Assembly (NCBI GenBank): GCA_023150835.1
Contig: JAKLKB010000060.1
Coordinates: 1-35,398 of the forward strand
Length of the DNA: 35,398 bases
Reading direction: 5' to 3'
Source of the DNA: Myxococcota bacterium
GTDB taxonomy: Bacteria; Myxococcota_C; UBA6777
The translations under genes were made by a program, and so were the position numbers. The notes under the pieces are model-generated. The model made no database searches, had not been told where the DNA came from, and saw only the letters and a list, made by a program, of their open reading frames with translations. Every line of letters starts with the position of its first letter. The first letter of the stretch is position 1. Shown in pieces: positions 2,054 through 22,335 of this stretch.

Positions 2054-2206
2054 TTTTTTTGCAAGAGAGTTTTGTGTCTTGCCAAGGAGTGCTTGTTTGT
2101 GCGAGCGTTCGGGGGTCTTTGAGGATTCTGACTTGGGTTCCCGACGGGTCGGGTCTGCGCTTTTTTGGGTCGGGTTTGCCTGATCGAGTCAAAAGGAAGG
2201 ATCGGG

Positions 2207-3838: not shown

Positions 3839-3874
3839 TTTTAGCTATCGCAAGGTGAGCGGGATACCCGCTAA
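3823..3874. repeat. 16-bp direct repeat (GCGGGATACCCGCTAA x2), each copy a small hairpin, between convergent genes
   Basis: Identical 16-mers at 3823-3838 and 3859-3874; GCGGG-ATA-CCCGC stem; each copy is followed by a T-rich run. Confidence 0.7.
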
Positions 3875-4881
3875 ATTTTTTTCCTTGAGCGTTTGGGCGT
3901 GGGTTCGTCGATCACGCCGTCGAGGATCGCGCCCGGGAATCGGGCCTCTTCGAGGATGGCTCCCGAAAAATCCGCGCCCGTCAGATCCGCACACTCAAAG
4001 TCCGCTCCCGTCAAATCGGCATGGCGAAAATTCGCCCCCACAAGGCGCGAACCCGAAAAGTCCGTGTACTGGAGCTTTGCGCCTTCAAACAACGCACCGT
4101 CAAAGATCGCATCTGTGGCGATGCTGTGCGTCATGTCGGCTTGCGTGAAGTTGGCTTCTTTGGCAGAACAGCCCGAGAGATCCGCGTAGGACAGATCGGC
4201 TTTTTTGGCTTGTGTGCCTGCGATGTTTTTGAGCCGCAAGACCGCTTGTGTGCCTTCGCTGGCTTGCGCTCCGACGTACATATTGAGCGGTAGCCCCGAC
4301 ACCGAGAGCAGTTGCCAAGAGCCGCCCGCACCGCCGCTTTGAAGGAAGCGTTTGTGTTCTTCGATAAGGGCTTTCCATGCTTTTTTGTCGAGGGGAGGCG
4401 TGCTTTGAGCGAGGCTTTCGATCATCGTCCGATCCATGCTGCGGCTTGAAGGCTCGTTGCAAGAAGGGAATCGTTGTGCGCGTTGGTAGGCTTCGCGTCC
4501 TTCGGGAGTTTCTGAGATGTGCAGCAAGATCACCACTTCTTGACCGAGCCATCGAGTCAGGGCCGTAGCCTCAGTCTCGTTGAGTCCTTTGGACATCAAC
4601 AAGGACAGGATCTGTTCGGTGGGGGTGTCTTTGGGCAGTGCGTTTTCATACAAATTGGCGGTGAATCCGCCTTCTCCGCCACAAGGCCAGTACCATGCGA
4701 ATCCGGCCTTGGCTCCGCGTGTGATGTAATCGAAGATCCCGCCCATCCATGTTTGTTCGCAATCGTTGGCGTTATCAAAGTAGAGTTGGGCTTGAGTGGG
4801 CTTTTGTTTTTTCTTGTAGCCGATGCAGGTCATCCCTTCGGCGACCATCTCGTCAAACAGCGCGTATTTACGATCACGCAA
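3871..4881 (-). CDS. Pentapeptide-repeat protein with uncharacterised N-terminal region
   Basis: C-terminal A(D/N)(L/F)xx repeats (ADLSY ADLSG, ANFTQ ADMTH, ANFRH ADLTG ADFEC ADLTG ADFSG); start codon uncertain. Confidence 0.75.
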   Translation of the reverse strand: MRDRKYALFDEMVAEGMTCIGYKKKQKPTQAQLYFDNANDCEQTWMGGIFDYITRGAKAGFAWYWPCGGEGGFTANLYENALPKDTPTEQILSLLMSKGLNETEATALTRWLGQEVVILLHISETPEGREAYQRAQRFPSCNEPSSRSMDRTMIESLAQSTPPLDKKAWKALIEEHKRFLQSGGAGGSWQLLSVSGLPLNMYVGAQASEGTQAVLRLKNIAGTQAKKADLSYADLSGCSAKEANFTQADMTHSIATDAIFDGALFEGAKLQYTDFSGSRLVGANFRHADLTGADFECADLTGADFSGAILEEARFPGAILDGVIDEPTPKRSRKKI

Positions 4882-5006
4882 CGGGCGGATGCCGTATCAT
4901 TCCCACGGCACGGAGGAGCAGATGATTTTCGTAGGGGGATATGCAGTGAGCGTGAAGAGAGCGTGCTGAAAGAGGCGGCTGTTTTGTGTGGGGAGGGCCT
5001 TGAGGG

Positions 5007-5795
5007 TTAGGGCGTTTTGGGGGCGGGGGCTTTGCGTGCTCGTTTGTGAAGAACGGGTAGGGCTTCGCGCTTTTTGGGATCTTTGGCATACAAGAACTGC
5101 ATGTGGCGATCCGCTTCGGCTTGGATATCCAAAAAGAAAGTCCACGCACGATCGCGTTCGAGGCGAGCTTCTTCGGAAACGCTTTCGCTTTGGGTGGGGG
5201 CAAGCAAAGCCTCTGCCATACTTTGCAGCGATGTGATCTGTGCGGGAGTGAGCAGTTCTTTTTGGAGGATCGTCGCCTTGTACGTTTCGACCGCTCTGGA
5301 GAGGTCTTGCAGGTCGTTTGCACGATCCACATAGCCCGTACCCGGCTTCACTTTTTCGATCACCTCTTCCACTTTTTTGTCACCAAACCCCACAACCCGC
5401 AGCACTTGGATCACGTATTCCTTCAATACCCCTGCTTCTTCGTATTTTTCTTGCGCCGCTATCGAGTTTGGATCAAGCAATTCGACCGCACGTTGCGCCG
5501 ACCAAAACGCCAATGCCGCTTTGCGTAGCAAGGCAAATTGTTTTTCAGGAACACTCACAAACGTCGCACGCAATGCAGGCAGCGCTTCTTTGAGCTTGGC
5601 GTCCATCCGCGTCGCGTAAGCCGATGCCTGTGCGCCTGAGAGCCGAGGCTTCCGGAGTTCTTCTTCTTTCAACGCCGCAAGGTGTTCTCGGAGTGCATCA
5701 AGGGCTTCTTGTGCTTCGCTCTCGTTAAGCTTCTCGCTGTCTTCGTCGTGTGGGCCTTCTCCCAAGGCATCTTTCCATGTCTGGCTTTCTGTCAT
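5007..5795 (-). CDS. Hypothetical protein (predicted helical, 262 aa)
   Basis: ATG preceded by GGAG; protein-like composition with GTGYVDRANDL and RDRAWTFF segments and a basic Pro-rich tail. No function recognised. Confidence 0.7.
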   Translation of the reverse strand: MTESQTWKDALGEGPHDEDSEKLNESEAQEALDALREHLAALKEEELRKPRLSGAQASAYATRMDAKLKEALPALRATFVSVPEKQFALLRKAALAFWSAQRAVELLDPNSIAAQEKYEEAGVLKEYVIQVLRVVGFGDKKVEEVIEKVKPGTGYVDRANDLQDLSRAVETYKATILQKELLTPAQITSLQSMAEALLAPTQSESVSEEARLERDRAWTFFLDIQAEADRHMQFLYAKDPKKREALPVLHKRARKAPAPKTP

Positions 5796-5980: not shown

Positions 5981-6349
5981 GCTTGTTTGGTAATGTGGGA
6001 TTGCGGTGGAGGCTGTGGTACAGCCTGTTTGGTAATGTGGGATTGCGGTGGAAGCTGTGGGACAGCCTGTTTGGCAATGTGGGATTGCGGCGGAGGCTGT
6101 GAGACAGCTTGTTTGGTAATGTGGGATTGCGGTGGAGGCTGTGAGACAGCTTGTTTGGTAATGTGGGATTGCGGCGGAGGCTGTGAGACAGCTTGTTTGG
6201 TAATGTGGGATTGCGGCGGAGGCTGTGAGACAGCTTGTTTGGTAATGTGGGATTGCGGCGGAGGCTGTGAGACAGCCTGTTTGGTAATGTGGGGTTGCGG
6301 TGGAGGCTGTGAGACAGCTTGTTTGGTAATGTGGGATTGCGGTGGAGGC
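5981..6349. repeat. 42-bp tandem repeat (VNTR), ~8.8 copies
   Basis: Unit GC(T/C)TGTTTGGTAATGTGGGATTGCGG(T/C)GGAGGCTGTGAGACA starting at 5981, 6023, 6065, 6107, 6149, 6191, 6233, 6275 and 6317 (last copy partial); no spacers. Confidence 0.95.
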
Positions 6350-6515
6350 AGCGGTATGGCTTGTGGCTTGTGGCGTGAGGCTTTCCTTGTCGATGCTTGC
6401 TTTGCTTTCTTTGCTTTCTTGAGGATGGGTGTTATACCATCCGCAGATGAAGGCGATACACGCAATAAAGCGCACCGTCAACGGCTGTTTTTCTCAGGAT
6501 GTGATGGGAGTTGGG

Positions 6516-8822
6516 ATGGATCAGGCAACGCACAACAAGATCGTATCTTTTCTTTGGGGGATCGCGGACGACGTTTTGCGCGACCTGTTTAGGCGCGGCA
6601 AGTATCCCGATGTGATCTTGCCGATGTGCGTCTTGCGCCGTTTGGATGCCGTACTCGAACCCACAAAACCCGCCGTTCTGGAAACCAAATCGCTCCTTGA
6701 TGAAGCAGGGATCTTGGATCAACACGCCGCACTTTGCGGGGCGTCTGGTCAGGCTTTTTACAACACCTCCCCATTTTGCCTTCGGGATCTCAAGTCGCGT
6801 GACACCACCCAGAAACTGCTTGCTGATTTTGAGGACTATCTCAACGGCTTTTCCAAAGATGTTCAAGATATCCTCGACAACTTCAAGTTTCGCAATCAGC
6901 TTGCGACACTCTCCAAAGCCGATGCGCTCGGAACCTTGGTCGAAAAGTTCCTCCATCCTGAGATCGATCTCAGTCCCGCAGGACTGGACAATCATGCGAT
7001 GGGAACGGTGTTTGAAGAGTTGGTGCGGCGCTTTAACGAAGAGAACAACGAAGAAGCGGGAGAACACTGGACGCCTCGTGATGCTGTGCGCTTGATGTCG
7101 AACCTCGTCTTTTTGCCCGTGGCCTCGCAGATCAAAGCGGGAACGTATCTGATCTATGATTGCGCTTGTGGGACAGGCGGGATGCTGACCGTGGCTGAAG
7201 AGACCTTGATGGAGATCGCCACCCAGCGCGGCCAACAAGTCAACGCACACCTGTACGGACAAGAGATCAATCCCGAAACTTACGCGATCTGCAAAGCCGA
7301 TATGTTGATCAAAGGAGAAGGAGAAAACGCCGAGAATATCAAAGGGGGTGCACAGTATTCGACGCTCTCCAACGATGCGTTCCCTGCGATGGCCTTTGAT
7401 TTCATGCTCGCCAACCCACCCTACGGCAAAAGCTGGAAAAAAGACCTTGAGCAGATGGGCGGCAAAGACGGGATGACGGACGCACGTTTTCGTGTGATGC
7501 ACAAAGGCGAGGAGCTTTTATTTCGGACGCGTTCAAGCGACGGGCAGATGCTTTTTCTCGCCAACATGGTCTCCAAGATGAACCACAAGAGCGACTTGGG
7601 ATCGCGCATCGCAGAAGTCCACAACGGAAGCTCGCTCTTTACGGGGGACGCTGGACAGGGAGAGAGCAATATCCGCCGTTGGATCATCGAAAACGATTGG
7701 TTGGAAGCTATCGTTGCGCTGCCGTTGAACCTCTTCTACAACACAGGCATCGCCACATACATCTGGGTTCTCTCGAATCGCAAGGCCGCACATCGTCAAG
7801 GCAAAGTCCAGCTTATCGATGCCTCTTCATGGTTTCAGCCTTTGCGAAAGAACCTCGGCAAGAAGAATTGCGAGCTTTCCCCTGCGGATATCCAACGCAT
7901 CTGCGATACCTTCCTTGCTTTTGAAGAAACCCCACAATCCAAGATCTTTCCGAACGAAGCCTTTGGATACCACAAGATCGTGGTCGAGCGGCCCTTGCGT
8001 CTGCACAGCCAGCTTTCCACTCCACGCATCCAAACGCTGCGCTTTGCTTCGGGGGATGAAGATCTGCGCTCCGTCTTGTTCGATGCTTTTGGCGATGCCT
8101 TGGCGGAGGACTTCGCTTCGGTCGCTGCGGAGGTGCAAGCGCGTCTGGATGCGTGGGGAACTGAAGACGTCGAAGACAGCGACGACGAAGAAGGCCCATC
8201 GAAAAAAGGCTTGCCGAAAAAGAAGAAAGACAAACTGCTCGATCCAAAGACATGGAAACGCGATGCGCGGCTTGTGGAGGTCGCAACGCTTTTGCGCGCC
8301 GAACTTGGCGGGGAGCTTTTCACGGATCACAACGTCTTTTGTGAGCGGGTGGACGACGCACTCAAGCGCCACGCCACGAAGTTGACCGCTGCGGATCGCA
8401 AAGCCTTGTTGCAAGCCGTCAGTTGGCGCGTTGAAGACGCTCCCCCTGTGATCGCCAAAAAGCACAAGCCAAGCAAAGTTAGCGCCGCTCCGTTGTTTGG
8501 ACTCTTTGAAGTCACGCTCCACGGGAATGTCTTTGTGGTCGAGTACGAAAGCGACAGCGAGATCCGCGATGCCGAGCAGATCCCCTTGCTCGAAGAGGGC
8601 GGTATCGAAGCCTTTTTCCGCCGCGAAGTCTTGCCTTACACCCCCGATGCGTGGATCAAACAAGACGCCACCAAGATCGGCTACGAGATCAGCTTCACAC
8701 GCCACTTTTATCAACCCAAGCCGCTTCGCTCCCTCGCCGAGATCCAAGCGGATATCCTTGCACTCCAAAAAGAAACCGCTGGCTTGTTGGATGGACTCTT
8801 TCAAGAGGAGATTGTGTCATGA
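6516..8822 (+). CDS. hsdM: Type I restriction-modification methyltransferase subunit (m6A)
   Basis: HsdM N-terminus (KIVSFLWGIADDVLRD), GEHWTPR, motif I DCACGTGG, YGQE, motif IV NPPY, LFYNTGIATYIW. ATG 6516 chosen because the family-typical N-terminus begins there. Confidence 0.95.
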   Translation: MDQATHNKIVSFLWGIADDVLRDLFRRGKYPDVILPMCVLRRLDAVLEPTKPAVLETKSLLDEAGILDQHAALCGASGQAFYNTSPFCLRDLKSRDTTQKLLADFEDYLNGFSKDVQDILDNFKFRNQLATLSKADALGTLVEKFLHPEIDLSPAGLDNHAMGTVFEELVRRFNEENNEEAGEHWTPRDAVRLMSNLVFLPVASQIKAGTYLIYDCACGTGGMLTVAEETLMEIATQRGQQVNAHLYGQEINPETYAICKADMLIKGEGENAENIKGGAQYSTLSNDAFPAMAFDFMLANPPYGKSWKKDLEQMGGKDGMTDARFRVMHKGEELLFRTRSSDGQMLFLANMVSKMNHKSDLGSRIAEVHNGSSLFTGDAGQGESNIRRWIIENDWLEAIVALPLNLFYNTGIATYIWVLSNRKAAHRQGKVQLIDASSWFQPLRKNLGKKNCELSPADIQRICDTFLAFEETPQSKIFPNEAFGYHKIVVERPLRLHSQLSTPRIQTLRFASGDEDLRSVLFDAFGDALAEDFASVAAEVQARLDAWGTEDVEDSDDEEGPSKKGLPKKKKDKLLDPKTWKRDARLVEVATLLRAELGGELFTDHNVFCERVDDALKRHATKLTAADRKALLQAVSWRVEDAPPVIAKKHKPSKVSAAPLFGLFEVTLHGNVFVVEYESDSEIRDAEQIPLLEEGGIEAFFRREVLPYTPDAWIKQDATKIGYEISFTRHFYQPKPLRSLAEIQADILALQKETAGLLDGLFQEEIVS

Positions 8823-9838
8823 GCTACGATGACTTGCTTGTATCCATCGCAGAAACCATCAAAGATTACAGGGAAGGCGAGATCGAGCCAAGAAATGAAC
8901 AATGCGTCGATCGGTGGGTTCAGCAGTTTGAGTCTGCGGTTCGTCGTCCCCTGTTGGTTGAGTTGGATTGGGTATTCAAGCAGACTTACCTTTCTCGCGC
9001 TGCGTTGGTAAGGGCTTTTACAGCATTGGTCAAAAAAAATTCGCCTGTGTATTGGAAAAACACACACTTCCTACAAATACAGCAAAACGGAAACAGCCAA
9101 AACGAGATGTTATCGCTTCTCAATGCTGCGATGTTGGATGTTCATGGCTTTGATCTCGGTGCTTGTGTCGGCGGTGAGCGGTATATGTACCTCGACGATA
9201 TCTCTTTTACAGGAAACCGCATCACAAATGATCTGATCCCTTGGATCAAGCAAGACGCTCCCAAAGAAACGGAGTTATGCATCGCGAGCGTGGTTCGACA
9301 TTCTTTTGGAGCCTACCAAGCCCATCAAAAATTAGAAGATGCAGTGAAGCAGTCAGGGAAATCGATCCACATCGATTGGCGATATTCCAAAGAGATGGAG
9401 AATCGCAAGACTTATCGTGACGATTCAGATGTGCTTTGGCCTTCGGTGCTTCCCGGTGATGTGTTTGTGCAAGAGTACCTCAGCGCGCAGAAATACCCCT
9501 TTGAGCCTCGCAATGCGGCTAGTCCCCCCCCCAGATACTTCTCTTCGGAAGAGGGACGCCAACTCTTGGAACGAGAGATGTTGCTTGCAGGCTTACAGAT
9601 CCGTTCCTTTTGCCAAAACCCCAAGGAGATCATGCGCCCTCTTGGTTATGGCCCTTTTGGGCTAGGGTTTGGCTCGACTTGGGTAACTTACCGTAATTGC
9701 CCAAACAACGCGCCTCTTGCGTTTTGGTGGGGTGATCCAGACTATCCGACAAACCATCCTTTTTCGCGTTGGTATCCTCTTTTTCCACGGAAAACATACG
9801 ACACGACGAACGAGGGCGTTTTTGATGACTTTGCTTAG
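8819..9838 (+). CDS. Phosphoribosyltransferase-like protein (PRTase-CE-like, conflict-system associated)
   Basis: PRPP-loop-like motif YMYLDDISFTG (9182-9214) and C-terminal GFG...YRNCPNN.PL.FW...WYPLFPR; GAGGAG RBS at 8805-8810 and ATGA overlap with the hsdM stop; 339 aa. Confidence 0.7.
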   Translation: MSYDDLLVSIAETIKDYREGEIEPRNEQCVDRWVQQFESAVRRPLLVELDWVFKQTYLSRAALVRAFTALVKKNSPVYWKNTHFLQIQQNGNSQNEMLSLLNAAMLDVHGFDLGACVGGERYMYLDDISFTGNRITNDLIPWIKQDAPKETELCIASVVRHSFGAYQAHQKLEDAVKQSGKSIHIDWRYSKEMENRKTYRDDSDVLWPSVLPGDVFVQEYLSAQKYPFEPRNAASPPPRYFSSEEGRQLLEREMLLAGLQIRSFCQNPKEIMRPLGYGPFGLGFGSTWVTYRNCPNNAPLAFWWGDPDYPTNHPFSRWYPLFPRKTYDTTNEGVFDDFA

Positions 9839-12122
9839 ACAACACCTTCCTGAACAAGCACGCACTTATGAGCGCCAGACCAGCGTTGTTTTTCTCAAGA
9901 CGAAAGAGGCGTTTGGTGGACTGTCCAACATGGCGGGCGGCTATCCTTTGCGCGTGAACCGCATCGTGCTTCTCACATCCGAAGCCCTCTATCAAGCCTG
10001 CCGCTTTCCCCATCTTCCCGATGTTCAGCGCATCATCCTTGCGGAAAAAAGCCCCATGACCGCAAAGATGCGTACGAAACCCTATCGTGCAGACTCTCGG
10101 CCTGATTGGGATCACGTTCGCGTCAAGATCATGCGTTGGTGTTTGCGTGTGAAACTTGCCCTTCACTGGGACAGCTTTGGCGAGCTGCTGCTCAGTACAG
10201 AAGAGCGCCCCATCGTCGAAGAATCCCGAAAAGATGATTTCTGGGGAGCCAAGCCCACGGATAGCCAGACGCTCGTTGGAATGAACGTGTTAGGCCGCTT
10301 GTTGATGGAACTCCGCGAAGCTATCAAAACAGAACCGAAAGAAGCGTTGTTGCGTGTCGAACCGCTCAACATCCAGCGTTTCTTGCTGCTCGATGCAGCC
10401 ATCGAAACGGTTGTCTCCCCAACTCTCTCGACGCCGCGCACATTGCACATCGTCCCCGCCTTCTTTCCCACGCCCTCCCCACCACCCGCACAGATCTCAC
10501 TCTTCGACACGAACCCTCCTTCACACGCCGAACGTGCAGACACCGTTATTCCTTCGCAGCTTCACACCGCAAATACAGCTTCTCCCCCTCACGTCTTGGA
10601 TACATCCATGAACACAACCACGACCGAACCTTCCACCGCGACCACCGAACCTTCCCTCCCACACCCACCACGCAACCCTCAACCTTATCCAGCCTACAAG
10701 GCTTCGGGTTCACCTTGGATCGGACAAGTGCCTGAACATTGGGAAGTGAAGCAAGCAAAGCACTTGGGTTCTTTTTTTAAAGGGGTAGGAGGAACGAAAG
10801 AAGACAATGTTCTTTTGGGGGTTCCATGTGTTCGCTACGGTGATCTTTACACAACACACCATAGCTTCATCCGCCGCAGCAAAGTATTTGTTCACGAGGG
10901 GCGTACGCACGATTACACGCCGATCCAGTACGGTGATGTTCTTTTTGCTGCGTCTGGCGAAACAATCGAAGAGATCGGTAAGTCCGCCGTAAATTTGATG
11001 CGAGAGTCCGCTGTTTGCGGCGGTGATACAATCATTTTGCGCCCAAATTCTTTTATTTATCCACCATTTTTAGGTTATGCAACAGATTGTCGGACATCCC
11101 AAACACAAAAGGCGATGATGGGCAGAGGAACCACAGTCAAACATATTTACCCAAGCGAACTCAAAAATCTCTTGATGCCGCTCCCTCCGTTGGAGGAGCA
11201 GGCCGCAATGGTGCGTTATCTCGATGATGCGTGTGGTCGTCTGGATCGAGCGATTCGAGCGAAGCGAAAGATGCTCGCGCTGCTTCACGAACAAAAGCAA
11301 GCCATCATTCACCGCGCTGTCACCCAAGGTCTCGACCCTCACGCACCCCGCAAACCGTCGGGCATCCCTTGGCTCGGTGAGATTCCGCAGCATTGGGAGG
11401 TGTTGCGGTTGGGGAGAGTAACGAATCTTATAACGGGGTATCCCTTCAAAAGCGAATGTTTCACGCAAAAGGAATCTGCGACGCGGCTTCTCAGAGGGAT
11501 CAATGTAACGCCAGCAGGATTGCGGTGGGACTCGACCGTTCGATGGGAACGAGCGTACAATGACGGTCTCGATGTGTTCTGCCTTGAAGTCGGTGACATC
11601 ATATTAGGGATGGATCGCCCAATCATCGCGTCTGGCGTTCGTGCTGCACAAGTTGAAGCGAAGGATGTCCCATCGCTTCTGCTTCAGCGAGTCGCCCGAA
11701 TTCGGCCAACTGAGAGACTGGACAACAGCTTCCTACTTATGTTGCTGAGAGGGAAACTCTTTGCTTATTACATCGCTCCAATTTTCACTGGCATAAGCGT
11801 GCCGCATCTTAGTCCAGAGCAAATTCTGAATTTCAAAATCGTGCTCCCGCCAAAGTCTGAGCAATCGGAAATCGTGCGATACGTTGAGGCGGAAACCGTA
11901 TCCCTAAATACCGCCATTGCCCGCATCGAAAGAGAAATCGCTTTACTGCAAGAGTACCGCACGCGGTTGGTGTCGGATGTGGTGACGGGGAAGTGGGATG
12001 TGCGAGAGGCGGCCAAGCATGTGAGGGAGATTTCGTATGGGGAGGATGCGGTCGATGGGGAGGATGTGGAGGGTGATGGGTTGGTTGAAGATGCGGACGA
12101 GGCGGAGGATGCGGAGGGATGA
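9825..12122 (+). CDS. hsdS: NADAR (YbiA-like N-glycosidase) domain fused to type I R-M specificity subunit HsdS
   Basis: N-terminal NADAR motifs (FGGLSNM, TSEALYQA, DW..VRV.IM, LL.T..RPIVEES..D.FWG, GMNVLGRLLMELR), a Pro/Thr-rich linker, then two TRD plus conserved-helix repeats of HsdS (PWIGQVPEHW...PLPPLEEQ; PWLGEIPQHW...LPPKSEQ...LVSDVVTGK). No in-frame stop; ATG 9825 overlaps the upstream gene by 14 nt. Confidence 0.9.
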   Translation: MTLLRQHLPEQARTYERQTSVVFLKTKEAFGGLSNMAGGYPLRVNRIVLLTSEALYQACRFPHLPDVQRIILAEKSPMTAKMRTKPYRADSRPDWDHVRVKIMRWCLRVKLALHWDSFGELLLSTEERPIVEESRKDDFWGAKPTDSQTLVGMNVLGRLLMELREAIKTEPKEALLRVEPLNIQRFLLLDAAIETVVSPTLSTPRTLHIVPAFFPTPSPPPAQISLFDTNPPSHAERADTVIPSQLHTANTASPPHVLDTSMNTTTTEPSTATTEPSLPHPPRNPQPYPAYKASGSPWIGQVPEHWEVKQAKHLGSFFKGVGGTKEDNVLLGVPCVRYGDLYTTHHSFIRRSKVFVHEGRTHDYTPIQYGDVLFAASGETIEEIGKSAVNLMRESAVCGGDTIILRPNSFIYPPFLGYATDCRTSQTQKAMMGRGTTVKHIYPSELKNLLMPLPPLEEQAAMVRYLDDACGRLDRAIRAKRKMLALLHEQKQAIIHRAVTQGLDPHAPRKPSGIPWLGEIPQHWEVLRLGRVTNLITGYPFKSECFTQKESATRLLRGINVTPAGLRWDSTVRWERAYNDGLDVFCLEVGDIILGMDRPIIASGVRAAQVEAKDVPSLLLQRVARIRPTERLDNSFLLMLLRGKLFAYYIAPIFTGISVPHLSPEQILNFKIVLPPKSEQSEIVRYVEAETVSLNTAIARIEREIALLQEYRTRLVSDVVTGKWDVREAAKHVREISYGEDAVDGEDVEGDGLVEDADEAEDAEG

Positions 12123-12170: not shown

Positions 12171-13202
12171 TTGGCGAAGCAGAAGAAGCAGAGCAAAGGC
12201 GCGGAAGAGAGTACGCCGTTTGATGAATTGATGAAGCATCTCGCGGATCGGTATGGGCGTGAGTTGGTGACGTATTTGGGGGGATTGTCGGAGGTGGAGC
12301 GTTGTGAGTCTGTCGGCGGAGAAGTGGAGATCACGCATCGTTTGACAGATCGGGTATTTCGGGTGAAAGCAAAGTTATCCCCCGAAGGAGAACAGGAAGA
12401 GTTTTTGGTGCATTTGGAGTTTGAGTCGTCTTACAACAAGTGGATGGGACAACGCTTGGGGACATACGGTTGGCATCTTTGCGAGAGAGAGAACTTGCCA
12501 GTGATGCACCTCGTTTGGTATGTGAGCGAAGAAACTCCGTCGTACTGGCCTTTGGGAGAATGGCAAAGAGAACGGGAAGAGGAGATGTGGATCGGGGGTC
12601 GGTTGGTGGGGTTGGTGTGTTGGCGGGAGATCTGGTTTTCAGGGAAGTACAAGGCTGAAGATTTTGTGAAAGAAGCACCAGCGTACTTGCTGCCGTTTGC
12701 GGCGTTGATGGAAGGGGCAGAGCGGCCCTTTATCAAGAGACTGGCCGAGGCGATTATGAAGAGCGATGTTTCCGAACAGCACAAACAAGACTTGTTGTTG
12801 ATGGCAAGTTTTTTGTTTGCGCGTTTTTTTGGAGTCCAGATCGTGCAAGAGGAGATCAAGATGAGCTTGCTTGAACCGAATCCATTGGTTGAGTACTTCA
12901 TGCAAAGAGGCCAAGAGAAAGGAAGACAGGAAGGAAGGCAAGAGATTATCGAAAAGATGTTGGGGCAGGGCCTTCCTCCGCAAGTGGTGGCCAATTTCAC
13001 TGGCTTATCGGTCGAAGAGGTGGAAGAGATCAAAGAAGCGCGGCGAGAAAAAACGCAGAGCAAGCAGCGTGTTGTGTTGCGGATGTTGGAGCGTGGCTTT
13101 TCTGTGGAAGAGATCGTTGATGTGACAGAGATGAAAAGAGAAGAGATCGAGCGTATTCAAGAGCAAACCAGCAGCAAGGGGATGCCCGAAGGGGAGGGGT
13201 GA
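12171..13202 (+). CDS. Rpn/YhgA-like PD-(D/E)XK nuclease (putative-transposase family)
   Basis: FD.LMK.L N-terminus, TDRVF...VHLEFES nuclease-like motif, LPV...V.Y, GQEKGRQEGRQE segment and C-terminal ML..G......I...T.L..EE motifs; TTG start after GGAGG. Confidence 0.75.
   Translation: MAKQKKQSKGAEESTPFDELMKHLADRYGRELVTYLGGLSEVERCESVGGEVEITHRLTDRVFRVKAKLSPEGEQEEFLVHLEFESSYNKWMGQRLGTYGWHLCERENLPVMHLVWYVSEETPSYWPLGEWQREREEEMWIGGRLVGLVCWREIWFSGKYKAEDFVKEAPAYLLPFAALMEGAERPFIKRLAEAIMKSDVSEQHKQDLLLMASFLFARFFGVQIVQEEIKMSLLEPNPLVEYFMQRGQEKGRQEGRQEIIEKMLGQGLPPQVVANFTGLSVEEVEEIKEARREKTQSKQRVVLRMLERGFSVEEIVDVTEMKREEIERIQEQTSSKGMPEGEG
12849..12863 (+). promoter_or_regulatory. Putative internal ribosome-binding site and in-frame ATG within the Rpn-like gene
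   Basis: GAGGAG-atcaag-ATG, with ATG at 12861 in frame with 12171; would yield a 113-aa C-terminal protein. Confidence 0.5.
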
Positions 13203-13310
13203 GGGGCAGCACGAAAAAGGAGCGTGTGACACGGAGTGTCGGAAGAAGGTGTTAGAGAGGAAAAGGCAGGGACGAAGGTCATCCATCACGAGGAAAGAGG
13301 AGGAAGTCTG

Positions 13311-16300
13311 ATGCGTGTCACAGATATCTCGGAGAAGGGTTTGGAGTTGTTGATCGTGGGGGAGATGACAGGGACGGATGGGGTGACACCACAAGCGGAG
13401 ACTCTTTCGGAAAACGCGGTGGGGCCGAGCAGTACTTATGCAGCGAACAAAAAGGGCTGGTTGTTGGGGAGGGCCAAGGATTATGATCGGGGCCACGCGT
13501 TGGATCTTGTGCAGCTATGTGCCTTTTTGCACGCGACGCAGCCCACGCTGTTTGAGAAAGTCCCCTTGCACGGGGAGCTTGATCCCAAGGATAGTCAGAC
13601 TGCGAAGTTTCTTGCGCGGCTATCATCGGAGATCGGAAAGGTGGGGGTGGTGGATGTCTTGCGGAAGGGGATAGAACACGGGCCGCACCATGTGTGGCTC
13701 TTTTATGGAACGCCCTCGGAAGGGAACACCACCGCAGAGATATTGCACACACAAAACCGTTTTAGCGTGACACGGCAGTTGCGTTACAGCCACGACGAGA
13801 CACGGAACGCGTTGGATCTGGTGTTGTTTGTGAACGGCCTTCCCATCGCGACGTTGGAACTCAAGAACAGCCTGACCAAGCAAACGGTGGCGGATGCAGT
13901 CGAGCAGTACAAGACAGATCGAGATAAGCGAGAAAAGCTGTTTGGTTTGGGTCGTTGTGTGGTGCATTTTGCGGTAGATGATGCAGAAGTGCGGATGTGT
14001 ACGGAGCTACAGGGGAAAGCGTCGTGGTTTTTGCCCTTTAACAAGGGTTGGGAGGATGGCGCGGGGAATCCGCCGAATCCAGCGGGACTCAAGACGGATT
14101 ATTTGTGGAAGGATATCTTTGCGCCGAAGAGTTTGATACATCTGCTCGAACATTTTGCACAGATGGTGGAGATCAAAGATCCTGAAACGAACAAGAAGAA
14201 GAAGTATCAGCTTTTTCCGCGCTATCACCAACTGGATGTGGTGCGATGTTGCCTTGCGGATGTGCAACGCCGTGGCGTGGGGGGGCGTTATCTGATCCAG
14301 CACTCGGCGGGGAGTGGGAAATCGAACTCGATAGCTTGGTTGGCGCATCAACTGGTGGGGCTTCAACAAGAGGGACAGTCGGTCTTTGATTCGGTGGTGG
14401 TGTTGACGGATCGACGGGTGTTGGACAACCAACTGGCGCAGACGATTCGACAATTGATGCAGATCAGGGCAACGGTGGGACACGCGCAAGAGGCAGGTGA
14501 TCTCAAGCGATTTTTGCAGGAAGGCAAAAAGATCATCATCAGTACAATTCAAAAGTTTCCCTTCATTTTGGAGGAACTCAGCGGGGAGGACAAAGGGCGG
14601 AAGTTTGCGTTGATCATCGACGAAGCCCATTCGAGCCAAGGCGGGAAAAGTTCAACGGCGGTGAATACGGCCTTGTCGGAGGGGTTGTCTGTGGAGGAAG
14701 AGGAAGATGGGGAGGATCTGATCAACCGCGCACTCGAACAACGGAGTGCATCGAGGAAGATGTTGAGCAACGCGAGTTACTTTGCGTTCACGGCGACGCC
14801 CAAGAACAAGACGTTGGAGATGTTTGGAGAGGGGCTTCCAGCCGATGCAGAAGGCAGAGTGAGATATCGGCCATTCCATCATTATTCGATGAAACAGGCG
14901 ATCCAAGAGGGTTTTATCTTGGATGTGCTCAAGAGTTTCACGCCGATCCAGAGCTATTACAGGCTGACAAAGACCATCGAGGGAGATCCCGAATTTGACG
15001 TGCGGAGGGCGCAAAAAAAGCTGCGCCGTTATGTCGAAAGCCACGAGTATGCGATCCGTTTGAAGGCGGAGATCATGGTGGATCACTTTCATGAGCGGGT
15101 GAGCGGGTTAAAAAAGATCGGTGGAAAAGCGCGAGCGATGGTGGTTTGCAATGGTATTGCGCGAGCCATCGAGTATTTTCGGGCATTTCAGGCGTATTTG
15201 ACGGAGCGAAAAAGCTCCTACAAAGCCATCGTCGCCTTTTCGGGGGAGTTTTTACATCAAGGGATCAACGAAACGGAAGCGTCGTTGAATGGCTTTGCGA
15301 GTGATGCCATCGCGAGCAAGATCAAAGAAGATCCGTACCGTTTTTTGATCTGTGCAGACAAATTCCAAACGGGGTATGACGAACCGTTGTTGCATACGAT
15401 GTACGTAGACAAGCCGTTGTCGGGGATCAAAGCGGTGCAAACGCTGTCTCGTCTGAATCGCGCCCACCCAGAAAAGTACGATGTCTTCGTGCTGGACTTT
15501 TACAACGACGCCACAGCGATAGCGGATGCTTTTTCAACGTACTACCGAACAACCGTCTTGAGCGAAGGAACCGATCCGAATCGGTTGAACGATCTGAAGC
15601 GTGATCTGGATCGGTTGGGTGTGTACGCTGCGGAGGAAGTTGAGCGGTTGGTGGGTCTGTTTCTTTCGGGTGCATCGCGGGAAAAGATCGATCCGCTGTT
15701 GGACATCTGGGTGTCAGAGTATCAAGGCTTGGACGAAGAAGAACAGATCGAATTCAAGGGGAAAGCCAAAGCCTTTGTGCGTGTGTACAGTTTTTTGGCG
15801 TCGGTATCATCGTATCCTCACGCAGGATGGGAGGGTTTGTCGATTGTGTTGAATTTGCTGATTCCCAAGCTACCCGCGCCAAAAGAGGAAGATCGGGCCA
15901 AAGGCATCCTTGAGACGGTGGATATGGAGAGTTATCGTGCAGAAAAGCAGGCCGTACAAAGTCTGCGGCTTGTTGATGCAGATGCGGAGATCGCGCCTGT
16001 TCCTGTGGAGAACGGTGGGGGGCGGGGAGAAGCAGAGATGGATCGTTTGAGCAGGATCCTTGATGCGTTCAATGCGCATTTTGGGGCATTGTTCACCGAC
16101 GCGGATCGGGTGATACGACGTATTCGCGAAGATATAGCGCCCAAAGTCGCCGCAGATACAGCCTACCAAAACGCCAAAAACAACACACCTGCGACTGCGC
16201 GAATCGAACACGACAAAGTGTTGGATAGAGTGATGCTTTCCTTGTTGAAGGATGACACCGAAGTCTATAAACAATTCCAAAACAACGACCAGTTCAAGCG

Positions 16301-16370
16301 AGAGGTGCGGGATCTGGTGTATCGGTTGACGAGCGGAGGCTTGGCTGAAGGCAAGAAAGATGTGGTTTGA
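13311..16370 (+). CDS. hsdR: Type I restriction endonuclease subunit R
   Basis: Nuclease motif DLVLFVNGLPIATLELKN, Walker A HSAGSGKS, DEAH box, FTATPK, FQTGYDEP, QTLSRLNR; ATG 13311 follows GAGGAGG. Confidence 0.95.
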   Translation: MRVTDISEKGLELLIVGEMTGTDGVTPQAETLSENAVGPSSTYAANKKGWLLGRAKDYDRGHALDLVQLCAFLHATQPTLFEKVPLHGELDPKDSQTAKFLARLSSEIGKVGVVDVLRKGIEHGPHHVWLFYGTPSEGNTTAEILHTQNRFSVTRQLRYSHDETRNALDLVLFVNGLPIATLELKNSLTKQTVADAVEQYKTDRDKREKLFGLGRCVVHFAVDDAEVRMCTELQGKASWFLPFNKGWEDGAGNPPNPAGLKTDYLWKDIFAPKSLIHLLEHFAQMVEIKDPETNKKKKYQLFPRYHQLDVVRCCLADVQRRGVGGRYLIQHSAGSGKSNSIAWLAHQLVGLQQEGQSVFDSVVVLTDRRVLDNQLAQTIRQLMQIRATVGHAQEAGDLKRFLQEGKKIIISTIQKFPFILEELSGEDKGRKFALIIDEAHSSQGGKSSTAVNTALSEGLSVEEEEDGEDLINRALEQRSASRKMLSNASYFAFTATPKNKTLEMFGEGLPADAEGRVRYRPFHHYSMKQAIQEGFILDVLKSFTPIQSYYRLTKTIEGDPEFDVRRAQKKLRRYVESHEYAIRLKAEIMVDHFHERVSGLKKIGGKARAMVVCNGIARAIEYFRAFQAYLTERKSSYKAIVAFSGEFLHQGINETEASLNGFASDAIASKIKEDPYRFLICADKFQTGYDEPLLHTMYVDKPLSGIKAVQTLSRLNRAHPEKYDVFVLDFYNDATAIADAFSTYYRTTVLSEGTDPNRLNDLKRDLDRLGVYAAEEVERLVGLFLSGASREKIDPLLDIWVSEYQGLDEEEQIEFKGKAKAFVRVYSFLASVSSYPHAGWEGLSIVLNLLIPKLPAPKEEDRAKGILETVDMESYRAEKQAVQSLRLVDADAEIAPVPVENGGGRGEAEMDRLSRILDAFNAHFGALFTDADRVIRRIREDIAPKVAADTAYQNAKNNTPATARIEHDKVLDRVMLSLLKDDTEVYKQFQNNDQFKREVRDLVYRLTSGGLAEGKKDVV

Positions 16371-16589: not shown

Positions 16590-16615
16590 GGGCAGCCACA
16601 GGGGGCTGCCCCTAC
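16590..16615 (-). repeat. GTAG-type REP element
   Basis: Minus strand reads GTAG-GGGCAGCC-ccctgt-GGCTGCCC: a GTAG tetranucleotide followed by an 8-bp perfect palindrome. Confidence 0.75.
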
Positions 16616-16681: not shown

Positions 16682-19600
16682 TTAGCGGAGAGAGAGAGCG
16701 CGAGGGCCGAAGAGGTTTTCGATGGCTTCTTCGAAGGATTCGGAGGGATCGACGCGGATGTGTTCGGGGAGTCGGATGAGCGTTTCGGAGCGTTGGGGGA
16801 TGGTGAGGTGAAGGAGGGCGAGGCAGGATCCTTGGTGTTGGTGGAAGATTTGCAGCATTTGGCGAGCGGCGGCTTCGGAGAGATCGGAGGAAGTGAGGTG
16901 GAGATGGACTTCGCGGGCTTTTTCGTTGCGGGCGGCGATGAGGGAGCGTATTTCGGCACCTTTCATGCGGACTTGGTTTTCGTCGGATTCGGTTTCACCG
17001 CGAACAAGGACGGGTTCGTCGCTGTCAAGGAGAGAGGCGACTTCGCTGTAGAGGCGTGGGAAGACGGAGACTTCGATGGTGCCGGTCATATCTTCGACCA
17101 TGATAAAGGCCATGGGTTCGCCTTTTTTGGTGACCATGCCGCGTTTGGAGGTGATGATGCCAGCGATAGTCACTTCGCTACCACTCGGATAATCGGAGAG
17201 ATCGGCGATATTTGCGGTGACGAAGCGTTTGATGTCTTTTTCGAGGCGTTGGAGGGGATGGCCGGAGATGTAAAAGCCGAGGATCTCTTTTTCTTGTTGG
17301 AGGCGTTCTTTTTCGGGCCAGTCTTTGAGGAGGGGGATCTTGGGTTTGGGTGGAGGGGCGGAGCTTGCGAGGAGATCGAACATCGAGATCTGGCTGCTGC
17401 CTTTGTCTTTTTGGAGGCTTTGGCCGTATTGGACGGCGTCGTCCATGACAGCGACGAGAGAGGCGCGGTTGATGGGTTCGATGCCATCGAAGGCACCGGA
17501 CTTGATCAGGGCTTCGATCACGCGCTTGTTGACGGGTTTGAGGTCGACGCGCTCGCAAAAGTCGTAGATGCCGGTAAAGGGGCCGCTTTTGCGGGCTTGG
17601 ATGATCGAGTCGATGGCGTTTTCGCCGATGCCTTTGATGCCAGCGAGGCCAAAGCGGATCTTGTCACCGATGGCGACAAAGCCTCCGTGGGATTCGTTGA
17701 CGTTGGGAGGAAGGACTTGTACTTTGTGTTGGCGGCAATCGTTGAGGTAGAGCAGAAGTTTGTCGGAGTTTCCGGCATCTGCGGTGAGAAGCGCAGCCAT
17801 GTATTCATGTCGGTAGTGGGCTTTTAACCACGCGGTTTGGTACGCAACCAGCCCGTACGCCGCCGAATGTGAGTTGTGTACGATCAAGCCGTTCGCAACG
17901 AAGTTATGATCGTGTTCAACGGTCAGATCGTAGGTTCTTTGCGCGCCTTTTGGTGTAATCGATACAACCGTATCCCAGTAGATCTCGGAATCTCCGAGAT
18001 ATTGAAGGTGGGTAGAAGAGAAAAAGGTAGCGAGTTTTTGGATCGTTGTGCGGCAGAAGCCTTTCTTTTTTTGCGTTGTTGCACCATAAAAATCTCGGAC
18101 ACAGACGCCTGATCTGTTTTCCACTTCCTTCCACGTCAGCCCTGCTTTTTGACGAAGGTCTTCGATCGATTCTCGGATATCAGAAGGGATTGTATCTTTG
18201 CTGCTTTCTTCCTCAACAAGGCGATCAAGGTAATTTTTTAGCTGCTCGACCTGTTCTTCTCGGCCAACGCAGTGGGGGGCAACTGTTTCGACAAACCGCC
18301 GTTTGGTTTGTGCTCCGATAAGCGAAACGGTGAATCCACCTTTTTTTTGCTCTCGGTAGGCAAAGGTTTTTGAGGCGATTTTGCTAGGCAAGCCGAGGCG
18401 CAAAAGCAGTAACTGCACGTCTTTTGCTAAACGTTGGGATGAAGTCGCGTAGAAAGGAGCGTCATGTTCACGCCTCCCGAAAATGAATCCGTCTCCGGCC
18501 CATAACCGGCCCAAAAAGAGAGCGATATCATCGTCTCGCAGGGTAAAGATTTCGGATGGGACAAATTTTTCTGTGGCGGTACAACCGATGAGTCCGAGCT
18601 GCTGCGCCCAATAGAAAGCGCCTGAACGCTTTGGCTGTGTTTGTTTCTGTGCAAGATTTCCGAGAGTGGGTTGGTTTTGCGATGTACAACGAAATGCCCG
18701 CCCGGTGTTTGCTGCCACTTCCATTCGGACAGTATTCGGTCTTGTGTAGATGTGGGCGACGGTATTAGGGAATTTTTGGATAGCTTGGGCAAAGTCATCA
18801 ATTTGTATGGGGTTGTTGTTGTAGAAATAAAGCGTGGTGGGGTGGCATGTATTGCCCTCTGCGATCAAGCCTGCAAGGGCGATAAGTTGGTGTTCTGCCC
18901 AAGAGTTCGATGTGTGCGTTGGTATACATCGGGGGGCAGCGATACGTGTTCCGACTTGCAAGTTTTCGAGCAGGGTCCAGCCTTGGAGGGTGCGAAAGGG
19001 ATGGTTTGCTGTGGCGGTGATGGTTTTGCCCAAGGCCGTTTTGAGTTCAAACGTGGGTTGGATACCGTTGTCGATGACGTCAGAGACCGAGCGGGTGTGG
19101 ATTTTCCAGTCGTTTCCGAGAGCATGAATTGAAAAGGGGCGTGGTGTGGCGTGGAGTTCGGCGAGGGTGGTGCGTTCGCCAGTCTGTGCGTCGAGGAGCT
19201 CGGTATCGCCAGCCAAGCAACGATTGAAACCATAGGCGGCGAACTTTTCGACCTTTCCGAAGAGGTCTTCGGCTTTTGCGGTGTCGAAGCCGTTTTTTTG
19301 GGCACCTTCGACAAAGCGGCTGCGTTGCTTTTCCATTTCGAGGGCGTCTTTTTTACCCATAGCGCGGCGCAAGAGGTCGGCTTCACCGAGGGAATAGCTG
19401 GCGAGTACGTTGGCGATTTGCATGACTTGTTCTTGGTAGATGCAGACGCCGTAGGTGCTACCGAGGACAGGTTGGAGGACATCGAAGATATAGTCGATCT
19501 TTTCTTGTCCGTGTTTTCGGAGGATGAAAGAGTCGGCCATACCGCTTTGGAGGGGTCCGGGTCGGTAGAGGGCGACGAGGGCGATGACGTCTTCAAAACA

Positions 19601-21574: not shown

Positions 21575-21624
21575 GAGATTCCTCGCAAAGTCAAGAAGGT
21601 GTTGGATCGGGGGTTTTAAGGGGA

Positions 21625-22335
21625 TTAGGAACGAGAGGAGGTGGTGGGGCGGGCATAGAGGGCCCAAAGCCGATCGAACTCTTGTTGAAAAGCGCGGATC
21701 ATCGAGGGATTGCGTGTGATGATCAGGTTTTCGTGGTTGTTGGTGCTTGCGGAGCGCGTCCAGTTGAAGCTGCCGTTGAGGAGGATGGATTGGTCGAGGA
21801 TGGCGAATTTGTGGTGCATGTGATCGCTGTTTTGATCGACAGCGGTGGGGATTCCGGTTTGGTTGAGGTTGGTCACATCGGAGCCGAGGTCGGCGGCTTT
21901 GTCGTTGTCGGAGAGGATGCGGACGGAGAGGCCGTTTTGGTGGGCTTTTTCGAGGATGCGGGAGAGGCGGTCATCCGTGATGGTGTAGACGCAGACATCG
22001 AGGGTCTTTCGGGCGCTTTGGAGGACTTCAAGAAGGCGGGCGTAGGAACGTGCATCAGGGAAGAACAAGGCTTCGTCGGCGTCGGTGGTTTGGGTGGGGG
22101 ACTGTTGGAGAAGGATCTTGGTGAGGGAGGCGATCCATTCGAGGGCAAGGCGCTCTTGGGGATGGCGGAGGGCTTGTTGTGCGCAAGCAAAGATCTCGTG
22201 GCGCAGGAGTTGGAGTTGTTCGGTGGAGGGTTGGGCGTCTTCAAGGAGTTGCTTGAAGACGGTGGCTTCGTTGCGGGAGAGTTGTTGATCGTCGAAACTT
22301 TGTTGGAGAAAGGTGCGGAATTGTTGGATATCCAT
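21625..22335 (-). CDS. Phospholipase D-family (Nuc-like, single HKD) nuclease/hydrolase
   Basis: HHKFAILD...GSFNWT..A...N.EN motif, LDVCVYTITD and an N-terminal helical extension. Confidence 0.88.
   Translation of the reverse strand: MDIQQFRTFLQQSFDDQQLSRNEATVFKQLLEDAQPSTEQLQLLRHEIFACAQQALRHPQERLALEWIASLTKILLQQSPTQTTDADEALFFPDARSYARLLEVLQSARKTLDVCVYTITDDRLSRILEKAHQNGLSVRILSDNDKAADLGSDVTNLNQTGIPTAVDQNSDHMHHKFAILDQSILLNGSFNWTRSASTNNHENLIITRNPSMIRAFQQEFDRLWALYARPTTSSRS

Follow-up and report, generated by a model that had tools for sequence, protein, structure and literature searches.

Why would the specificity subunit of a type I restriction-modification (R-M) enzyme carry a second enzyme at its N terminus? 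The question is raised by a locus on contig JAKLKB010000060.1 of a Myxococcota bacterium (GenBank assembly GCA_023150835.1; GTDB lineage Bacteria; Myxococcota_C; UBA6777), where a NADAR domain and a type I specificity subunit (HsdS) are encoded in the same open reading frame (ORF). The 35,398 nucleotides (nt) analyzed here, referred to as the window, are one entire contig of a 7.56-Mb genome (239 contigs, 93% complete). An annotation made earlier from the letters of the DNA (the original prediction) had read this ORF either as a true fusion that delivers a glycosidase to the recognition sites of the enzyme or as a recent read-through of two genes that yields long and short HsdS isoforms. The ORF is a genuine conserved NADAR-HsdS fusion, and its HsdS is complete, with two target-recognition domains (TRDs). 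Judging by its profile matches, the NADAR belongs to DS-32, a two-gene anti-phage system, of which it is the second protein, DS-32B. The fusion gene and its parts are the following, all on the + strand.

9825..12122, +, the DS-32B(NADAR)::HsdS fusion gene, 765 codons plus stop in one open frame

9861..10403, +, NADAR domain of the DS-32B type, residues 13-193, from profile NF053876

10407..10691, +, predicted disordered linker rich in Pro, Thr, and Ser, residues 195-289, between sequence anchors

10491..10505, +, Q223-I-S-L-F227, a conserved Q-x-S-L-F and candidate beta-clamp-binding motif, with a predicted local distance difference test score (pLDDT) of about 30

10608..10610, +, in-frame ATG (Met262), with no Shine-Dalgarno (SD)-like word 4-16 nt upstream

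10613..10680, +, three imperfect 21-nt direct repeats within a lineage-specific insertion of ~30 amino acids (aa)

10680..12038, +, HsdS proper, residues 286-738, with two TRDs and two long conserved helices

12039..12119, +, acidic, predicted disordered C-terminal tail, residues 739-765, pLDDT < 50

The frame is open from the ATG at 9825 (or from a TTG at 9717) through the stop codon at 12120-12122, with no stop inside it in the whole-genome search. We take ATG 9825 as the probable start because it follows GAGGG at 9812-9816, because it gives a 14-nt overlap with the stop of the upstream gene (9836-9838), and because homologues begin at the equivalent place. Both halves of the protein are recognized by several methods. 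Pfam finds NADAR (PF08719) over residues 23-167 (E 2e-22) and two stretches of Methylase_S; the PADLOC type I profile Specificity_I spans residues 286-730, from nt 10680, and is covered from position 5 to 441 of 448 (3.1e-95). The HsdS part resembles the Protein Data Bank (PDB) entries 1yf2 (1e-21) and, for EcoKI, 2y7c (1.8e-14). An AlphaFold2 model computed from an alignment of 35 fusions (mean pLDDT 81.8) is confident at residues 10-200 and 285-738 and drops below 50 at residues 1-9, 202-268, 270-281, and 739-765. It contains two beta-rich TRDs and helices at 456-501 and 677-720, which is the full HsdS layout of two TRDs, a central helix between them, and a C-terminal helix after them, with hsdM and hsdR alongside. 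The original prediction of one in-frame ORF ending in an HsdS of this architecture is thus borne out, and we assign the HsdS part as a type I specificity subunit with a predicted role in directing sequence-specific methylation and restriction. Its acidic tail is encoded by a 9-nt tandem repeat (9 copies, 12037-12117; Tandem Repeats Finder), and acidic ends are present in the consensus of the other fusions as well.

The gene directly upstream of the NADAR, which the original prediction did not mention, gives the fusion its context. It lies with the fusion between the other two genes of the R-M operon.

6429..8822, +, hsdM, type I methyltransferase subunit, 797 aa from GTG 6429 (Pfam N6_Mtase 6e-53, HsdM_N 5.7e-21)

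8819..9838, +, DS-32A, putative phosphoribosyltransferase (PRTase)-like effector, 339 aa (NCBIfam NF053875; Pfam PRTase-CE 2.6e-46)

13236..16370, +, hsdR, type I restriction subunit (Pfam SWI2_SNF2, HSDR_N, ResIII, T1R_D3-like)

DS-32A overlaps the hsdM stop by 4 nt and the fusion start by 14 nt, and is translationally coupled to the fusion. Against the NCBIfam equivalog DS32_1_antiphage (NF053875) it scores 355.5 bits, for a cut-off of 250, and residues 13-193 of the fusion score 279.1 bits against DS32_2_antiphage (NF053876; cut-off 240), or 283.3 bits in the whole-genome search. DS-32A is also a weak match to the PADLOC family PRTase_III-A, and a PDB sequence search found no solved relative of it. 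From these matches, the locus is a complete DS-32 module inside a type I R-M operon, in the order hsdM, DS32A, DS32B::hsdS, hsdR. DS-32 was validated against phages in Escherichia coli by DefensePredictor (bioRxiv 10.1101/2025.01.08.631726). The preprint calls DS-32B NADAR-like and structurally similar to DarG, calls DS-32A a PRTase unrelated to DarT, and suggests toxin-antitoxin partner swapping; its passages do not give a mechanism. The string DS-32 is absent from the main text of the Science version (PMC13092281). Both window proteins are above the equivalog cut-offs and keep the gene order and adjacency of the validated pair, which the preprint describes as two separate genes in passages that leave R-M unmentioned. 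The window differs in that its DS-32B bears a complete HsdS and that the pair lies between hsdM and hsdR rather than as two stand-alone genes. Anti-phage protection by the window pair is presumed by analogy with the E. coli system.

Two minor points concern these genes. The true hsdM start may be later than GTG 6429 because homologues align only from about residue 29. Two more NADAR paralogues are encoded in the genome (C120:64493-64930 and C160:21254-21703); each scores ~84 bits against DS32_2, below its cut-off, and one of them has an in-frame TGA.

The fusion is by no means confined to the window. A genome scan with one genome per species gave 599 matched stretches; relatives are encoded in 522 of them, and the 80 best make up the loci analyzed here. 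A protein search set comprised the window fusion and its best 120 matches. NADAR and HsdS lie in one open frame in 68 of the 80 loci, and both are present in 44 of the 121 proteins, with the NADAR 57-74% identical (60-74% in full-length fusions) and the HsdS 32-60%. One of the 68 (L071) has a frame that breaks after 330 codons, on a contig with a coverage of about 2x. Four further loci (L025, L062, L069, and L082) appear to contain this gene too, either interrupted or truncated where the contig ends, and the other eight are different forms. According to the record titles, the loci come from alpha-, beta-, and gammaproteobacteria, Acidobacteriota, Planctomycetota, Verrucomicrobiota, Chloroflexota, Latescibacterota, Thermodesulfobacteriota, Rhodothermales, Armatimonadota, and Binatia, and cultured carriers include Nitrococcus mobilis Nb-231, Desulfurivibrio dismutans, Parvibaculum sedimenti, and Amaricoccus sp. 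B4. This breadth argues for a true fusion and contradicts a recent read-through of two genes; a search for other NADAR-HsdS fusions succeeds readily, and the homologous loci are not all split.

The operon is conserved along with the fusion. A DS-32A homologue is present in 76 of the 80 loci and in 64 of the 68 fused ones, on the same strand in all 64 and at a median extrapolated gap of -0.5 nt. In three of the four fused loci without DS-32A the NADAR stands at the contig start. The fourth (L016, Thermoanaerobaculia, 1627-5210) has a GmrSD-type (type IV restriction) gene in place of DS-32A, preceded by a YhcG PD-(D/E)XK gene, and its linker retains QPTLF. Among the fused loci, hsdM lies upstream in 63 and hsdR downstream in 61, and neither is found in the flanks of the eight other-form loci. 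In many fused loci (L005, L007, L017, L019, and others) a gap of 2-4 kb separates the end of the upstream hsdM match from DS-32A, and the match takes in no more than residues ~38-570 of the 797-aa HsdM of the window, which suggests extra genes, or a different HsdM C-terminal region, between hsdM and DS-32A in these loci.

The nearest HsdS parts by sequence include ordinary unfused HsdS proteins (P0008, P0010, and P0021) at 66-70% identity. The fused hsdS would therefore seem to exchange TRDs with normal ones. Because DS32_2 was found in none of five other genomes of the window's phylum (completeness 64-94%), the occurrence of the system here fits horizontal acquisition. Mobile-element collections returned NADAR relatives in 13 plasmid and 2 phage records, from a query of NADAR plus tail only that is uninformative on fusions there; both records that we opened from these collections are stand-alone DS-32 pairs. 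One such pair, in Klebsiella pneumoniae CP125156.1 (L112:2956-4594), has both proteins above the equivalog cut-offs and sits beside an ISKpn26 transposase, on a record labelled plasmid yet 5.37 Mb long.

Could the junction in the window nevertheless be faulty? The original prediction had pointed to a ~90-aa Pro/Thr-rich linker, a 21-bp near-duplication, and an in-frame ATG at 10608 with a poor ribosome binding site, and each of these holds in substance. The linker measures 95 aa (P 22.1%, T 17.9%, S 10.5%). The duplication is real but weak, with copies at 10613-10633 and 10634-10654 that are 81% alike and a third, degenerate copy at 10660-10680 (76%), and it went unreported by Tandem Repeats Finder at score 30. 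The ATG is in frame, as Met262. About 30 linker residues, including Met262 and the 21-nt repeats, are missing from the 34 other aligned fusions. Long and short HsdS isoforms may be made in this window; among 64 fused loci, an in-frame ATG with an SD-like word lies in the linker of 7, and no conserved internal start with an SD-like word was found.

Public sequence data were used to check the linker for a stop or frameshift. Parts of the window are contained in 20 public runs, four of which were compared, as assembled contigs rather than raw reads; the stretches left uncovered in runs X5, X6, and X8 are gaps between contigs and should not be interpreted. Over 10060-10900, a contig of the probable source sample matches the window without a single difference. 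In a contig from another study (X8), 10392-10737 shows 21 substitutions and is gap-free, and pieces from a third study (X6) tile 10413-10763, also gap-free. No insertions or deletions were listed in any of the four compared runs. When the 29 listed X8 substitutions are applied, no stop arises and 16 residues change, 14 of them within 207-293, while QISLFD (223-228) is unchanged. Because this variant keeps the frame open, we regard the linker as real DNA that evolves fast by substitution yet stays in frame. One run is labelled metatranscriptomic and is flagged as probably DNA.

The unchanged hexapeptide turns out to be the one conserved element of the linker. In the 35 aligned fusions the stretch from NADAR to HsdS is unalignable save for Q-x-S-L-F-[D/E], which in the window reads QISLFD (residues 223-228, nt 10491-10508), and HsdS begins with 'LKPYPxYKDSGxPWLG'. 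The window linker, at 95 aa, is longer than those of 64 full-length fused loci, which measure 44-80 aa (median 66). The strict form of the motif, Q.[STGAD][LMF]F, is present in 51 of these 64 linkers, where 200 shuffles gave a mean of 0.12 and a maximum of 3; a looser pattern occurs in 59 (shuffle mean 1.92). The strict motif is likewise present in 56 of 110 stand-alone DS-32B tails (shuffle mean 0.4, maximum 2), and several stand-alone proteins end precisely in QISLF, QRSLF, QLSLF, or QSALF. By sequence comparison, then, the linker is the C-terminal tail that stand-alone DS-32B also bears, with its conserved motif kept. At the C terminus of the 201-aa Klebsiella DS-32B of CP125156.1 stands DQILLL, which may be a clamp motif of the hexapeptide type.

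The beta-clamp-binding consensus QL(S/D)LF is found at C termini (PMC9690074), and QISLF, in a region predicted to be disordered, fits it. A complex prediction with residues 205-250 and two copies of the genome's own DnaN (28-row DnaN alignment) gave values of 0.57, 0.55, and 0.57 for the interaction prediction score from aligned errors (ipSAE), compared to 0.01 for the best control, a weak pass. Between runs, at least 61% of the contacts coincide, with a partner pLDDT of 43 or more and no reported interface. Of 80 solved complexes used for calibration, 58 reached the mark for a pass, as did 2 of 110 mismatched pairs; at 0.60 or below it was reached by only 7 of the 80 and by both mismatches. 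Clamp-peptide complexes have already been solved, so the pass may reflect likeness to these, and our own alignments and the use of two copies differ from the calibration set-up. We give roughly even odds that the tail contains a functional clamp motif.

The attachments of DS-32B outside the HsdS fusions suggest what such a motif could be for. Searching 1.84 billion representatives with NADAR plus tail gave 512 DS-32B-like proteins at E <= 1e-30, of which the best 150 were sorted by length.

Under 240 aa: 19 proteins

240-399 aa: 75 proteins

400-599 aa: 22 proteins

600-799 aa: 31 proteins

800 aa or more: 3 proteins

Pfam families were scanned in the 56 representatives of at least 400 aa, the 94 shorter ones being left out. 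NADAR was found in all 56, Methylase_S in 26, DUF1156 in 5, and PRTase-CE in 2 (PRTase-NADAR fusions), with single occurrences of DprA (DNA_processg_A), DUF4365, DUF6988, TIR, M78, and N6_N4_Mtase. Helix-hairpin-helix (HhH) domains occur in 8 of 120 short homologues, among the matches listed. The kept loci contain examples of both kinds, DS32_2 with a ComEA-type HhH (L075, 7845-8930) and DS32_2 with a DUF1156 anti-phage-type protein (L083, 7701-11576, Bradyrhizobium sp. 139). In L073 (428-2350), a DS-32B NADAR is fused to a P-loop/helicase-like region. HhH forms lack the Q-x-S-L-F motif (0 of 8 vs 56 of 102; Fisher p 0.0025, uncorrected for kinship), and in this respect the motif seems to behave as one of several alternative DNA or replisome tethers. 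A role for the motif as a PRTase-binding site was considered and rejected, on small numbers: L075 and L078, both with HhH, keep the PRTase without the motif, and L016 has the motif without the PRTase.

Both enzymes of the pair appear to be kept active, to judge from their conserved motifs. NADAR residues E53, E132, D137, and W140 are invariant across 35 fusions. The domain matches YbiA 2b3w (E 8.7e-15), and in that alignment E132 stands at the Glu of YbiA 'lvEh'; such a last-strand Glu is the mark of the YbiA family of NADARs (PMC11125620). These roles were assigned by alignment, the source passages being without numbering. On the DS-32A side, conservation among 73 aligned homologues is 95% or higher at Y124, D126, D127, F130, G132, and YRNCPNNAP, and 80% or higher at L125. 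Its YLDDxxFxG and PNNxP sequences probably correspond to the phosphoribosyl pyrophosphate (PRPP) loop and the retron-PRTase-specific motif of Retron-Eco11, whose PRTase effector needs the PRPP motif for defense and on activation lowers PRPP (PMC12746101). As for the NADAR relatives, those that serve as antitoxins to DarT1 and YarT strip DNA guanine of ADP-ribose (PMC11125620), and NADAR/YbiA cleaves ribosyl N-glycosidic bonds of riboflavin intermediates (PMC9503650), an activity that the family name of TIGR02464 also gives.

What, then, might the fusion do? DS-32A nearly always stands beside the NADAR and the pair is also found without R-M genes; therefore, the job of the NADAR would seem to be tied to the PRTase, not to restriction. 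Our preferred reading, to which we assign a probability of roughly 45%, is that DS-32B works with the PRTase as a DNA-directed eraser or in an antitoxin-like role, and that its attachment to HsdS tethers the NADAR and couples DS-32 to restriction. DS-32B would remove (phospho)ribosyl-type N-glycosidic adducts made through the PRTase effector, and for this work it would have to be kept on DNA. The tether would vary by lineage, being the beta-clamp-binding-like motif, a ComEA-type HhH, a DUF1156 methylase-type protein, or DprA. With the NADAR built into HsdS, each M2S or R2M2S complex would carry one NADAR, so that the fusion would couple DS-32 to restriction in both dosage and position. We favor the eraser role because of the analogy with DarT1-NADAR and YarT-YbiA and because NADARs cleave ribosyl N-glycosides.

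Several points weigh against this reading. The contact of either enzyme with DNA is argued by analogy, and a metabolic target would be at least as well precedented as DNA: the Retron-Eco11 effector, the one characterized PRTase-CE-type relative, is reported to deplete soluble PRPP (PMC12746101), and ShosT is reported to disturb purine metabolism (PMC11961720). The full-length fusion product is predicted from the open frame. The clamp prediction is a weak pass (0.57), 13 of 64 fused linkers are without the strict motif, and the idea of alternative tethers leaves unexplained why HsdS fusions retain the motif though HsdS binds DNA. Nor does the NADAR-domain tree help. It holds 122 of 149 candidate rows, those without a sequence anchor being omitted, many of its metagenome proteins are cut by contig ends, and the labels are rough. 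Only 16-17 of 119 inner branches are starred, the HsdS label has to change 16 times along the tree (no fewer than 6 of these changes being forced), and the tree appears too poorly resolved to tell a single from a repeated origin of the fusion.

A bolder extension of the preferred reading, which we put forward as an unlikely but specific conjecture, makes DS-32 a PRPP-dependent counterpart of DarTG. The PRTase would phosphoribosylate DNA bases, the NADAR would ride the replisome via the clamp motif and erase adducts from host DNA, and the HsdS fusions would be clamp-tethered R-M complexes with an eraser of their own. If this were true, restriction and a DNA-modifying abortive system would act as one machine.

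The same observations bear on other explanations. The R-M complex could instead be a guard, with the NADAR serving as an antitoxin held in the M2S core, so that disabling of the core by an anti-restriction protein (Ocr, ArdA) or by proteolysis frees the PRTase and aborts the infection. PrrC inside the EcoprrI type I locus offers a precedent, the effector module does sit in the R-M operon and is physically attached to it, and the association is all or none, the eight stand-alone or otherwise fused loci having neither hsdM nor hsdR in their flanks. We nonetheless think a guard unlikely: the invariant NADAR catalytic residues imply that enzymatic activity matters, not sequestration alone, and fusions of the same NADAR to HhH, DprA, and DUF1156 are unexplained by a guard specific to type I systems. 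Those attachments to DNA-binding modules, together with the clamp-like motif, are equally unexplained if the NADAR is a co-effector that hydrolyzes the N-glycosidic product of the PRTase, regenerates the acceptor, and so drives a futile burning of PRPP, with the HsdS fusion serving only for co-expression or for activation on foreign DNA. Such a cycle is made conceivable by the intact catalytic motifs of both enzymes, by the PRPP depletion reported for the Retron-Eco11 PRTase effector (PMC12746101), and by NADAR/YbiA cleavage of phosphoribosyl N-glycosides of riboflavin intermediates (PMC9503650), yet the known NADAR partners in defense contexts are antitoxins (PMC11125620), and we judge it decidedly improbable.

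It is also conceivable, if distinctly unlikely, that the fusion is merely convenient, DS-32 having been inserted between hsdM and hsdS and the stop after its floppy tail having been lost without harm and co-inherited. A disordered tail would make such a fusion structurally harmless, the linker is free to vary in sequence and in length (44-95 aa), and the NADAR-domain tree lacks one clean clade. However, in none of the 80 loci does DS-32B stand beside a separate hsdS, save for the interrupted genes L025 and L071, and the fusion has been kept across many phyla while the TRDs diverged to 24-57% identity. The function offered by the original prediction, in which the HsdS-borne glycosidase strips bulky phage base modifications at recognition sites ahead of type I restriction, fares worse and is in our estimate very improbable. 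NADARs are indeed N-glycosidases able to act on modified DNA bases (PMC11125620), and HsdS would deliver the enzyme to DNA. Against that, the NADAR is assigned as DS-32B and is nearly always accompanied by its PRTase partner (76 of 80 loci), the same pair defends stand-alone, without R-M (10.1101/2025.01.08.631726), and the known NADAR substrates are ADP-ribosyl or phosphoribosyl N-linkages; the passages of the NADAR literature contain no report of activity on O-glycosyl or other phage DNA hypermodifications. That the ORF reflects an assembly error or a lineage-specific read-through, with HsdS made from the internal start, we consider a negligible prospect. The unique insertion, imperfect repeats, and in-frame ATG of the window linker could have hinted at it, but contigs from other studies cross the linker with substitutions and no indels or stops, the fusion recurs in 68 of 80 loci, and an internal start with an SD-like word occurs in only 7 of 64.

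How does the locus compare with described systems? Canonical HsdS proteins (Methanocaldococcus jannaschii 1yf2, Thermoanaerobacter tengcongensis 3okg/5ybb, EcoKI 2y7c) share the two TRDs, the two helices, and an operon with hsdM and hsdR; they are without the ~285-residue N-terminal extension of enzyme and disordered linker. PrrC is an anticodon nuclease, an RNase on a separate polypeptide that associates physically with the EcoprrI type I R-M proteins, so that there, too, an abortive-type effector module is attached to R-M proteins in a type I operon. In the window the attachment is covalent, and the enzymes are a putative PRTase and N-glycosidase. ShosA is DprA-like. One DS-32B-like representative with a DprA domain brings ShosTA (PMC11961720) to mind, and the match of DS-32A to PRTase-CE and PRTase_III-A, with PRPP-loop-like and PNNxP motifs kept, recalls the effectors of type III-A retrons (Retron-Eco11, PMC12746101), PRTase-CE being present in type III-A1 retrons (PMC13712802). 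Unlike the retrons, DS-32 is without a reverse transcriptase or noncoding RNA, and its regulator would be a NADAR enzyme. DarT1-NADAR and YarT-YbiA resemble DS-32 in setting a NADAR hydrolase gene beside a toxin-like enzyme that transfers a nucleotide sugar, and they share the YbiA-type Glu, here E132 (PMC11125620). The DS-32 partner differs in being PRTase-like, not an ADP-ribosyltransferase, so that the donor would be PRPP rather than NAD+, and the pair here is known from its genes. As in the QL(S/D)LF clamp binders (PMC9690074), Q-x-S-L-F lies in a disordered region, often at the very C terminus of stand-alone DS-32B, with the difference that the DS-32B motif is known from its sequence and a weak complex prediction.

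A literature search, which did not cover the DefensePredictor supplements, found, among the papers it listed, no published link of NADAR/DUF1768 with HsdS, type I restriction, restriction-modification, or clamp binding. Public databases list the fusion proteins generically, for example as 'DUF1768 domain-containing protein' and 'type I restriction enzyme S subunit'. The fusion, which combines the known DS-32 with type I R-M, thus seems undescribed, and the clamp-like tail seems to be a further undescribed feature of DS-32B. DS-32 has been validated only recently, and its natural fusions (HsdS, HhH, DUF1156, DprA) together with the clamp-like tail point to DNA as the workplace of the NADAR. This pattern yields a concrete hypothesis for DS-32 that is open to bench experiments. 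Restriction biology gains from it a widespread class of HsdS that bears an enzyme on a flexible arm, as well as a covalent case among the few abortive-type modules known to be built into R-M operons.

Two further features lie within or just after the operon.

12171..13202, +, Rpn-like ORF between hsdS and hsdR (Rpn-family/putative transposase; TIGR01784 5.1e-10, below its cut-off)

16590-16611, terminator-like site downstream of hsdR

The Rpn-like ORF, of which none of the 80 related loci contains a homologue, is probably an insertion specific to the window, not part of the system. Just upstream of hsdM, at 5981-6349, is a 42-nt tandem repeat (8.8 copies, 95% matching) that is open in several frames on both strands; it might influence hsdM expression or might be a minisatellite. 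Directly downstream of the operon, on the - strand at 16682-21667, is dnaE (DNA polymerase III alpha), interrupted by an intein with a LAGLIDADG domain. At the other end of the window, a patatin-like phospholipase gene (326-2053) is followed by a 557-aa ORF without a Pfam family (2165-3838), and these two may be another defense-type pair beside the R-M operon.

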